Shown here: piece by piece, positions 29,497 through 32,400 of the stretch
How the letters are laid out: every line of letters starts with the position of its first letter
Position numbering within the stretch: the stretch's first letter is position 1
Assembly (NCBI GenBank): GCA_051362555.1
Contig: CM120640.1
Location: 33,437,967-33,501,966 of the forward strand
Source: Lingula anatina
Taxonomy: Eukaryota > Animalia > Brachiopoda
Direction: 5' to 3'
Length of the DNA: 64,000 nucleotides
Notes under the pieces: model-generated
Database searches by the model: none
What the model saw: only the letters and a program-made list of their open reading frames with translations
Told to the model about the DNA's origin: nothing
Translations under genes and position numbers: made by a program

Positions 29497-32400
29497 CTAA
29501 CACCAAGAAAAGAATGGCGCTCGTTTTGAGAACCTCTGTATAAATGTCTCTCCACTAGCTGTCCTTGGCCTACCAGGGCCATAACCACTCTTACTCCTCT
29601 CCACTGTGACCACGGGCATTTGGACCAACTGAACCGGAGACTTCCCATCTCTAAGGGCTTGGCTTAGATTTAAAATCTGAAAATTGAATAAAATTTGTAT
29701 CAATTTCTTTCCCTTTTTCAACCACTTTTTGGTTTCATCTGAATATTATGCACGCAATTACCACATAAAATGCCAGAAGATTATTTTCATAATCATAATA
29801 AAACTGTCAGAAGATTTAAGTAAAAAGTAAATCTAACATTTACACTAATAATTTCTCATAAAATCATTCTGATATCTTACCTGGCCTCTCATTACAGACA
29901 TCTGCTTTTCAAATGTCCTTTTGTCAAAACCCTTATCAGTCTGAAGAAAGAAAGGAAACCAGGGCATAAACAAACTGCAATCTGATTAAATATGCTATGA
30001 CACCAGCAGAATTTCCACCTACACATAGAACTCATTTCAATATTTCATCAATTACAAATGTGCAGTCAGCACAGTTTTTTTTTGTCTCTTTCATTGACTC
30101 TGACAACAATCAGATCTTTACTTCAAGCTAGACTGAATTATTCTGAACTTCAATCATTAATATTTCGCAGTATATATGATGGACCCTACTATGCCTACAT
30201 GCTCACCTTAAAGAGAAGGTACAATTCATCACAAAGATCTTCTACAAAGGTCATATCAGACAACTGAGGAAGCACTAAACTTTTGAGTTCTTCTGAAAAT
30301 GGCTTTTTGGCCATAGGCAACCATGCCCAATGGTAAGGGTCTGCAAACAACAAAGAAATTCATTTCTTTATTTAGAACAATAATAAACAACAGTAAAATA
30401 TAAACAATTTAAAAAAAAAATGAAATAAAACAAATAAATAACAAACTGAGATGTTCCATACTGATAGCTTAAATAGCACCATTCTAAACATTTACTTAAA
30501 GAAATATACTAAATAAATGCTATAAATTGTACGAAAAGAAATTGTTTTATGAGGAGACTATTACTAAAGCATGGGCAAGGACTTCTAGAACTTCATATCT
30601 CAAACACACCGTCTGTGAAAATAATGGTTATAATGTGCCTCTGGTGATTGAATTAACTACTGGAGATATGCACATACATTTGTTAAAGAGCTGATTCTAC
30701 ATTTAAACATGCAAGAAGCAGTCAGCTGTGCTTTACACCACTTACATGCCCTCCACTCATCTGGGTGCTTGAAGGGGAATGCTAGGCCATTGTCTATAGC
30801 TGCCACAGAGATTTCGGGGGGTTTCACCATACTCCAGTCCACATCCTGTTAGTTAGTAGAGAGATATAGAGAGAGACAGAATATATAGCTATCCAACTTG
30901 ATCAATGACAGCAGAAAAATATAAGCGTTATGCAGATTGATAGTGGTGCTGTGGAACTAACTATATGTGCAGTTGAACATGCAAGTGTGCAACTGCTAAC
31001 AATAGGTGGAAGCATTAGTAGCTTGTTAGCTGTGTCACCACAGGCAGTGGGGCGAATACTAGATCCCACTTCTTCTATGGTCTACCAGTGACTTACATGC
31101 CCTCCAGCTGTCTGGATGTTTATAGGGAAATGCCAGACCATTGTCTATGGCTTTCACCTGGATAGACGGGGGCTTTACCATGCCCCAGTCCATCTCATCA
31201 TCATCATCATCCTCATCATCCGCCTAGAATTGAGTTTTGCCCCCATTAAACTTGATCATATGCTGATAAGTTACAAACCTTAAAATGTTCACTGCTGCTA
31301 TAGACATAATATTTGTCACAATATACATTAATATTAAATTGTAAAGACTGATCAAATGATTTTATGATTTTACACGCTATCAAATTACACAAAAATAAAT
31401 AAATAAATAAATAAATATCTTTGATCAGTTTCAACAAAGATCAATCATTAGTCCTTACATCATCCTCATCCCCTCCTGAAGACTCGTCTACTTCAGATTT
31501 CTCATATTTAATTAACCAATTATCGTTGCCACGGTCTGAAAACCAAGATAAATGAATTATCAGAGGTTACATAAAGTAGCTGGCAATTCAATCAAAGTGA
31601 AATAATTCCTTAAGTGTACACTTTTAAAAAGATATTTTTAAAATTGCAAAGGACACACTGAAACTATCATCCTTACTCCAAACATGTAAAACATTGGAAT
31701 TTTGGTTGTCAGCTGGGGGATAAATCACATGCTATAATTGGTGAGAATTTCATTTATCAGGGTTCAATAGGAAAATGGAATGATGTGTTACAGAATATAA
31801 AATCATTGAACAATTTTACCTGTATTTCTTATGATATAGTCCAAAACCACTAATTTTTCAAACTGAAGTTGGAAACTTTTTGCTGTTGACTCTGGTAATG
31901 CTTCATTGTCAAACCTTCGTAACCAGAAATCTGCATCTTTGTAGTTCTCTACAAACAACTGGAATGATCCACTCTGAAATAAATCAATAAATTTAGAAAG
32001 ACAATCTCAATGTAAAGAGAGAAACACAGACTGTAGTAACATCTTTTGCAAGTTTGAAATTTAAATTTTATGAGAAATAAATGAATTAATTAATGCAACA
32101 CTCACTTTTGGAGGTAAGCCAATTCTGTGAAAATGTCTGCCAAGTTCTGGAAACCTTTCCTGTATGTTTCTTTTTGTCCTTGACTTTGCCCTGTCTATTG
32201 CACTGTAATTGAAGGTTTCACTGGCAAGGCGAACCACCTGGCAAACAAAAAATTCAGAAGAGACAATTTTTAAACATTTTTCAAATGCCTCTGGCAACGA
32301 GAAATAACCAGGGATCTGGCAAGCGATTTGGCTCCAGAAAAAGCTCTGGCAACATCACCAGACTAGAACTGATTTGTTCAGAACAAAATAACACAAAACT

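Follow-up and report, generated by a model that had tools for sequence, protein, structure and literature searches.

A tandem pair of alternatively used activation-loop exons in the type II PI 4-kinase gene of the brachiopod Lingula anatina

Tandem-duplicated mutually exclusive exons, as portrayed in PMC4494069, PMC9741552 and PMC8373072, are adjacent homologues in the same phase, one of which enters each transcript, and the resulting isoforms differ in one segment. The pair analysed here, exons 6a and 6b of the PI4K2 gene of Lingula anatina, has all of these properties; it differs from the known pairs in belonging to a brachiopod lipid kinase, in exon lengths that differ by a multiple of three, and in that no such pair was found in the other animals examined. 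A related phenomenon is isoform separation (CALU, U2AF1, CACNA1S/F and the FYN family, as presented in PMC4494069), where paralogs each hold one variant, and a sequence-only reading of this locus had proposed the same for vertebrate PI4K2A and PI4K2B (2A and 2B). Those cases, however, are supported by exon trees in which each paralog nests inside a single exon clade, and by relatives that have retained the two exons; neither was found for PI4K2. Human 2A (4HND, 4PLA) and 2B (4WTV, 9HHM) belong to the same family as the Lingula kinase, share its catalytic motifs and have Ser or Glu at residue 358, as do 6a and 6b. They stem from a gene duplication placed in early vertebrates in the account of PMC3024228, and the main differences between them, as summarized in PMC10216963, lie in the N-terminus (AP-3 versus AP-1 sites), palmitoylation state and Hsp90 binding; these are not reproduced by Lingula's swap of a 33-residue exon.

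The stretch of DNA analysed (the window; 64,000 nucleotides of contig CM120640.1, assembly GCA_051362555.1) contains the L. anatina PI4K2 gene, as identified by its match to RefSeq proteins. The CCPCC motif, the G-loop, the DRGNDNW catalytic loop and the DNG motif are all present in the window and, together with PDB matches to PI4K2A/B and the PF00454 domain of the matching RefSeq proteins, place it among the type II PI 4-kinases. The whole coding span (29497..38550) lies on the minus strand, as do all features described below, and RNA junctions are seen from exon 3 onward. RefSeq models and translation give two alternative first exons (38550-38233 and 34910-34671); the coding span model continues with the exon carrying the CCPCC motif (33305-33105) and further upstream exons at 32237-32106 and 31973-31820. 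RNA reads and frame define the 77-nt exon 5 (31459..31535), which encodes the end of the catalytic loop and the first half of insertion I3. Exon 6a (31097..31223) and exon 6b (30746..30845) follow, separated by a 251-nt intron (30846..31096), and are succeeded by the shared downstream exon 7 (30207..30340; RNA reads and RefSeq) and, in the model, by the last two coding exons (29940-29881 and 29676-29497). The RefSeq models, automatically named 'alpha' or 'beta', have the same two isoforms as the window: X1 (XP_013399471.1) and X3 (XP_013399473.1) carry 6a, with one Asp more than the window's 6a, and X2 (XP_013399472.1) carries 6b. Both isoforms are therefore already modelled in RefSeq, by automatic annotation only. 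A search of published titles and abstracts, supplements excluded, found none on the Lingula 6a/6b pair; genome-wide splicing tables, such as that of MetazExp (PMC8728262), could include the event. Downstream of the gene, at ~27540-28800, three similar blocks of ~150 nt and two copies of a GCCGTC-repeat stretch were noticed by eye; this is probably a repeat element.

Exons 6a and 6b are intact tandem homologues, adjacent, in the same phase and with valid splice sites. The coordinates, lengths (127 and 100 nt), translations, AG acceptors and GTAAGT donors from which the sequence-only reading had recognized two homologous minus-strand exons all hold, as does its statement on frame: both exons run from phase 0 to phase 1, exon 5 ends at 31459 in phase 0, and inclusion of both or of neither breaks the frame. 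Counted from the start at 34910, the open frames are of 434 aa with 6a and 425 aa with 6b. With both exons or with neither, a stop falls 292 or 128 nt, respectively, upstream of the last junction, by the usual rule enough distance for nonsense-mediated decay. Scanned with a profile HMM of 195 exon-6 peptides, the window gave two strong matches and no more (69 and 63 bits; the next scored -3).

Over 33 aligned codons the two exons are identical at 73 of 100 nucleotides, with 15 identical, 10 synonymous and 8 amino-acid-changing codons. The differences had been described as mostly synonymous, which stands as a slim majority overall, but as 7 to 2 in the conserved 3′ half. Synonymous identity (12/22) is near the background given by distant orthologues (0.42 +/- 0.10, with 8 of 57 reaching the 6a/6b level), so the duplication is old and undated. 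Exon 6b is close to the spiralian consensus and has F/E at positions 353/358 (human numbering). Exon 6a encodes an acidic extension of I3, followed by the strand before DNG and the activation loop; where the human enzyme has Ala343 it has Lys, its residues at 353/358 are Y/S, and it uses AGC for this Ser. At the protein level it is as similar to 6b (25/33) as it is to hemichordate, crustacean and Nematostella exons (25/33). The GAT (Asp) run in 6a (31194-31220) differs between individuals, with 5 Asp after DDE in the window, 6 in RefSeq and 3-4 in the read consensus of runs X8 and X1. Short intron matches also flank the two exons: 10/10 upstream (31249-31258 and 30895-30904, nearly at the exon offset) and 14/16 downstream, around TGCATG (30970-30985 and 30700-30715). 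Such matches arise in 2-3% of shuffles but in 9-16% of real intron pairs; they are statistically weak, and may be duplication remnants or shared elements.

To observe use of the exons in mRNA we aligned eight of nine same-species RNA runs (X6 was left out), listing a joint when it had at least 3 reads with 2 starts. In the eight runs, 122 reads joined exon 6 to exon 7 (67 from 6a and 55 from 6b), and 53 joined exon 5 to 6b. The joint of exon 5 to 6a was visible only through loose read ends that carry 6a sequence (39 reads over the five runs listed), because the GAT repeat was masked in the alignment. Against these 122 exon-6/7 reads, no joint of 6a to 6b or of exon 5 to exon 7 reached the threshold of 3 reads and 2 starts in any of the eight runs; in X8 and in X9 a single joint was discarded because of repeats, and rare (fewer than 3 reads) or decayed messages would not show. 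The junction counts that had been suggested as a check thus find each exon spliced singly to both flanks (5 to 6a by loose ends). The pair is one of mutually exclusive tandem duplicated exons, both of them expressed, with no joint inclusion above the listing threshold. Split by study, the 6a:6b counts for the 3′ junction were 6:0 (P1), 2:9 (P2) and 59:46 (P3); P1 and P2 differ (Fisher p=0.002) in a comparison of small, pooled read counts that is confounded with study and individual. Low unspliced read cover runs across the 6a-6b intron (30846-31096) in 8/8 runs, the other introns shown being nearly empty, which suggests slow or stalled splicing there.

Aligned to the human enzyme, exon 6 corresponds to PI4K2A residues 329-361. 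In the description of the 2A structure in PMC3974213, I3 comprises residues 318-340 and lacks electron density, and the activation loop spans 344-364; Asp346 binds the nucleotide, Trp359 and Arg360 lie on the membrane face, and W359A lowers activity. The pair takes in the DNG motif and the greater part of the activation loop, and 6a does lengthen the acidic insertion by its Asp run, both as anticipated from the sequence. Four of the eight residue differences, along with the Asp run, map to I3; the remainder fall at 341, 343, 353 and 358, the last adjoining Trp359. The Lys of 6a at 343 (exon position 15) was seen in no other of 370 peptides; 346 of them have Ala. From these positions we infer that the difference in charge between the isoforms may affect membrane binding.

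The 2A and 2B motifs that the sequence-only reading had given are correct, matching PDB chains 4HND/4PLA and 4WTV/9HHM. Its description of 6a as alpha-like and 6b as beta-like is not supported by comparison: both exons score higher against 2A than against 2B (45.3 vs 32.5 and 46.6 vs 36.9 bits), and only one of the eight differing residues, the Ser/Glu (S/E) site, sorts with the paralogs. Mean identity to seven 2A and eight 2B peptides is 22.9 and 20.1 for 6a, and 23.7 and 23.6 for 6b. The F of 6b matches 2B, but the Y of 6a does not match the L of 2A; several diagnostic residues common to each exon and its paralog were looked for, and position 358 alone sorts both ways. Y/F as a marker of the paralogs was discarded, since it varies independently of S/E. 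Of 370 peptides, 30 contain the motif K[ED]P[VIA]IK; each of them belongs to the 2A or 2B type (the 2B of sturgeon, gar, frog, turtle and emu among them), and no invertebrate peptide of that set has it. Being vertebrate-only and common to both paralogs, the motif points to one vertebrate source exon.

Position 358 itself is labile over the family. Among 384 distinct peptides 13 residues occur there (S 170, E 150, also Q, R, N, K, A, G); the choice of S or E hardly varies inside a phylum, yet it changes from one sister group to the other. Ser is found in Trichoplax, cnidarians, insects, crustaceans, hemichordates, amphioxus, Ciona and 2A, and Glu in molluscs, annelids, nemerteans, a bryozoan, flatworms, nematodes, a mite, echinoderms and 2B; of seven named fungal representatives, chosen as having S or E, three have Ser (Geosiphon, Dissophora, S. 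cryophilus) and four Glu, including Dimargaris, Mycoemilia and Kluyveromyces. Ala, one step from both GAR and TCN codons, occupies the site in 11 of 57 distinct genomic exons. The Ser of 6a is AGC and the other six Ser exons with DNA use TCN, a weak distinction, as a conserved Ser may change its codon family. The proposal that S/E is a phosphorylation switch finds no support, the site being as variable across the family as these counts show; the string 'S358', in that spelling, has 0 occurrences in PMC3974213.

A search for the exon together with its donor in metagenomes, a narrow sampling, gave 72 genomic loci, mostly spiralian-like by best match and some cnidarian-like or tunicate-like. No second copy of exon 6 was detected by TBLASTN and the 195-peptide HMM in any of the 72, of which 25 span exon 5 to exon 7 (19 distinct peptides), at least five of these with exons 5 and 6 fused. 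The fusion is present in the tunicate-like loci, and these and echinoderm-like genomic ORFs lack the upstream intron; the upstream boundary of exon 6 is found also in cnidarian-like loci and 2B-like genomic ORFs. In protein records, which miss unannotated exons, an S/E isoform pair was seen in none of 19 other animal clusters, Lingula standing alone among the 20 looked up; the clusters and loci compared lie outside the genomes of other brachiopods, phoronids, priapulids, lampreys and hagfish. The distinctive residues of 6a were met in no protein among the 120 matches listed of 134, a set in which 90% clustering can hide isoforms. Nor were both exons found in the close outgroups of the 2A/2B duplication: at the protein level amphioxus has one form in 8/8 records, and Ciona one form. 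The spiralian-like loci hold two recurring PI4K2 exon types, with Ala (L023, L041, L047) or Glu (L007, L051) at the S/E site; each is single-copy in its gene, and the two are possibly separate paralogs.

The first exon of the Lingula gene is duplicated as well. The alternative first exons at 38550-38233 and 34910-34671 are homologous (44% identity over 54 aa), each encodes N-lobe helices and the G-loop, and RefSeq X1 and X2 use the first, X3 the second. First-exon isoform pairs occur also in Lineus, Dimorphilus, Dreissena, Mya, Saccostrea, Biomphalaria and Haliotis. The second type has Leu at the equivalent of human R129 in 10/10 sequences compared, and the seven mollusc ones among these also have Cys for Ser137; R129 binds the membrane in the account of PMC3974213, where R129A lowers activity. 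Vertebrate 2A and 2B both have a first exon of the first type. By these comparisons the first-exon duplication looks common to lophotrochozoans, appears to remove a membrane-binding Arg, and seems older and more widely kept than the exon-6 pair.

We consider it likely that L. anatina has a single type II PI4K gene with two tandem exons for the end of I3 and the activation loop, used alternatively, which were duplicated within the brachiopod line, the Ser/Glu match to the vertebrate paralogs being probably convergent. Exon 6b would then be the ancestral, Glu-bearing exon of spiralian type, and 6a a diverged copy that acquired its Asp run through a weak acceptor further upstream, together with the unique Lys and the Ser. 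Parsimony on a hand-written 18-tip tree counts six events for a single-exon ancestor (four changes, one duplication and one change) and 16 for an ancient pair (a duplication, a change and 14 exon losses). Against duplication in the brachiopod line stands that no tree test rejects an old duplication, that the species tree is 15 log units worse when all columns are used, and that 6a is as close to distant Ser exons as to 6b.

The exon-only tree, of 33 columns, is unresolved, and a quick full-length tree served only to place unnamed proteins. Single-clade AU tests reject nothing with the S/E column, where holding all Ser exons together is 3.7 units better, and nothing without it; with the column left out, 2A and 2B fall on one side of a branch with support 77. 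We also compared three fixed topologies: partition of an old exon pair between 2A and 2B, an old duplication with a single vertebrate source (mixed), and the species tree. When all 33 columns are used, partition has the highest likelihood, with the mixed tree 0.6 log units and the species tree 15.1 behind it (p-AU 0.075 for the species tree); once the S/E column is dropped, the species tree leads, followed by the mixed tree at a distance of 1.2 and by partition at 7.4 (p-AU 0.083 and bp-RELL 0.04 for partition). No model is rejected by these tests on 33 columns. The exon tree put forward as a check of ancestral partitioning thus favours partition with the S/E column and ranks it worst of the three without, AU rejecting neither, and tree support for partition comes from the single column that prompted the idea.

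The alternative that fares best is that the pair is old, of protostome or bilaterian age, and explains part of the invertebrate S/E patchwork, with Lingula its sole known keeper, 2A and 2B derived from one exon and Glu gained separately in 2B. The mixed tree lies 0.6, 1.2 and 1.7 log units from the best in the three versions of the test, synonymous sites are near saturation, and the YKHPDSW of 6a resembles the exons of cnidarians, Trichoplax, Ciona and beetles. We nevertheless regard this history as unlikely: it still requires many reciprocal losses, no second keeper appears in the 25 spanning loci or the 19 clusters, Y/F assorts independently of S/E (Y with E in Haliotis and Nucella, F with S in hemichordates and crustaceans), and the flanking intron matches (10/10 upstream, 14/16 downstream) weakly favour a younger copy.

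Less probable still, and in our view improbable, is the history proposed by the sequence-only reading, in which a bilaterian exon pair lasted until the vertebrate gene duplication, 2A keeping the Ser exon and 2B the Glu exon, while other phyla lost one and Lingula kept both. Isoform separation of this kind is documented, with 11 cases presented in PMC4494069; the 6a and 6b motifs match 2A and 2B, the S/E distribution is patchy between sister groups (hemichordates S and echinoderms E, most arthropods S and nematodes E), the upstream boundary reaches cnidarian-like loci and 2B-like ORFs, and the likelihood with all 33 columns is best. However, the case rests on one column, without which its tree is the worst of three; the vertebrate-only motif and the branch uniting 2A with 2B speak for a common source; amphioxus and Ciona have one form and the tunicate-like loci are fused; 14 losses are needed; and the 6a Ser codon is AGY rather than TCN. 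An origin of 2A and 2B from 6a and 6b is therefore disfavoured, by the motif, by the single form of amphioxus and by trees that lean against it without the S/E column, none of which rejects it. There is correspondingly little chance that a two-exon switch of the first bilaterians survives, as far as is known, in Lingula alone, the S/E patchwork recording which copy each lineage kept and 2A and 2B being splice forms frozen into genes.

Least probable of all is that the pair is real but functionally near-neutral, equivalent exons being kept as either works and exclusivity arising mainly by decay of frameshifted messages: most differences lie in the untraced I3 loop or at labile sites, the Asp run varies between individuals and candidate RNA helices are no stronger than shuffles, but frames and splice sites are intact in both copies despite near-saturated synonymous change, usage differs between studies, and the Lys at exon position 15 is unique among 370 peptides, 346 of them with Ala.

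How the choice between the exons is made may be read from their flanks. The acceptor region of 6a (31224..31250) has a poor pyrimidine tract, with 40% pyrimidine at -23..-4, the poorest of nine; the other eight acceptors have 65-90%. The 6a-6b intron, by motif scan, contains three ACTAAY motifs (starting at 31019, 30857 and 30853) and one TGCATG (30983). Shuffles have 0.30 ACTAAY on average, and 0.4% of 2000 reach three, for a motif chosen post hoc. Two of the motifs are overlapping ACTAAC just before the AG of the 6b acceptor (30848..30858), 4-8 nt from the exon, where they form a candidate Quaking/STAR repressor site, although branch-like motifs are expected near any acceptor. QKI also promotes exons from downstream sites. 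Repression by QKI through tandem ACUAAC is described for RAI14 exon 11, among others (PMC13004596), which, like 6b, has two ACUAAC before an alternatively used acceptor; the RAI14 motifs, however, lie 34 and 43 nt upstream and are shown by binding data, whereas those of 6b, predicted from sequence, overlap and lie 4-8 nt away. In run X9 a variant at 30854 changes TACTAAC to TACTGAC on the coding strand (4/4 reads), which keeps the branch-like motif and breaks one ACTAAY.

Other forms of control were considered. For docking-site/selector RNA structures, of the kind described in PMC6071210, the signal does not exceed chance: candidate helices of -10 to -19 kcal/mol exist, but in five comparisons 1-25 of 40 shuffles equalled the best duplexes, and the z score of the regional fold is +0.56. 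Steric exclusion is unlikely, given a 251-nt intron in which ~220 nt separate the 6a donor from the pyrimidine tract. The Rbfox motif TGCATG follows both exons without enrichment (14% of shuffles).

By analogy with RAI14, a Quaking/STAR protein that occupies the two ACUAAC motifs beside the 6b acceptor would keep 6b out of the message, to the advantage of 6a; where the protein is absent, 6b would prevail through its stronger acceptor. Double or null inclusion of exon 6 would be removed by nonsense-mediated decay. Perhaps there is an even chance that a Quaking-type switch, backed by decay, governs the choice. Both isoforms would keep all catalytic residues and would differ in membrane-facing charge, with Ser or Glu beside the equivalents of Trp359 and Arg360, the extra acidic residues of 6a sitting in the disordered I3 loop; this difference may tune membrane binding or activity by tissue or stage.

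If the ancient history were true, the vertebrate enzymes would be a rare case of paralogs made from splice forms more than 550 million years old, but the evidence leans against it. What 6a and 6b do provide is a clean, expressed case of a duplicated exon that swaps the activation loop of a lipid kinase. They also form a natural pair of enzymes with which to ask whether the residue beside the membrane-inserting Trp, at which 2A and 2B also differ, changes membrane binding or activity.
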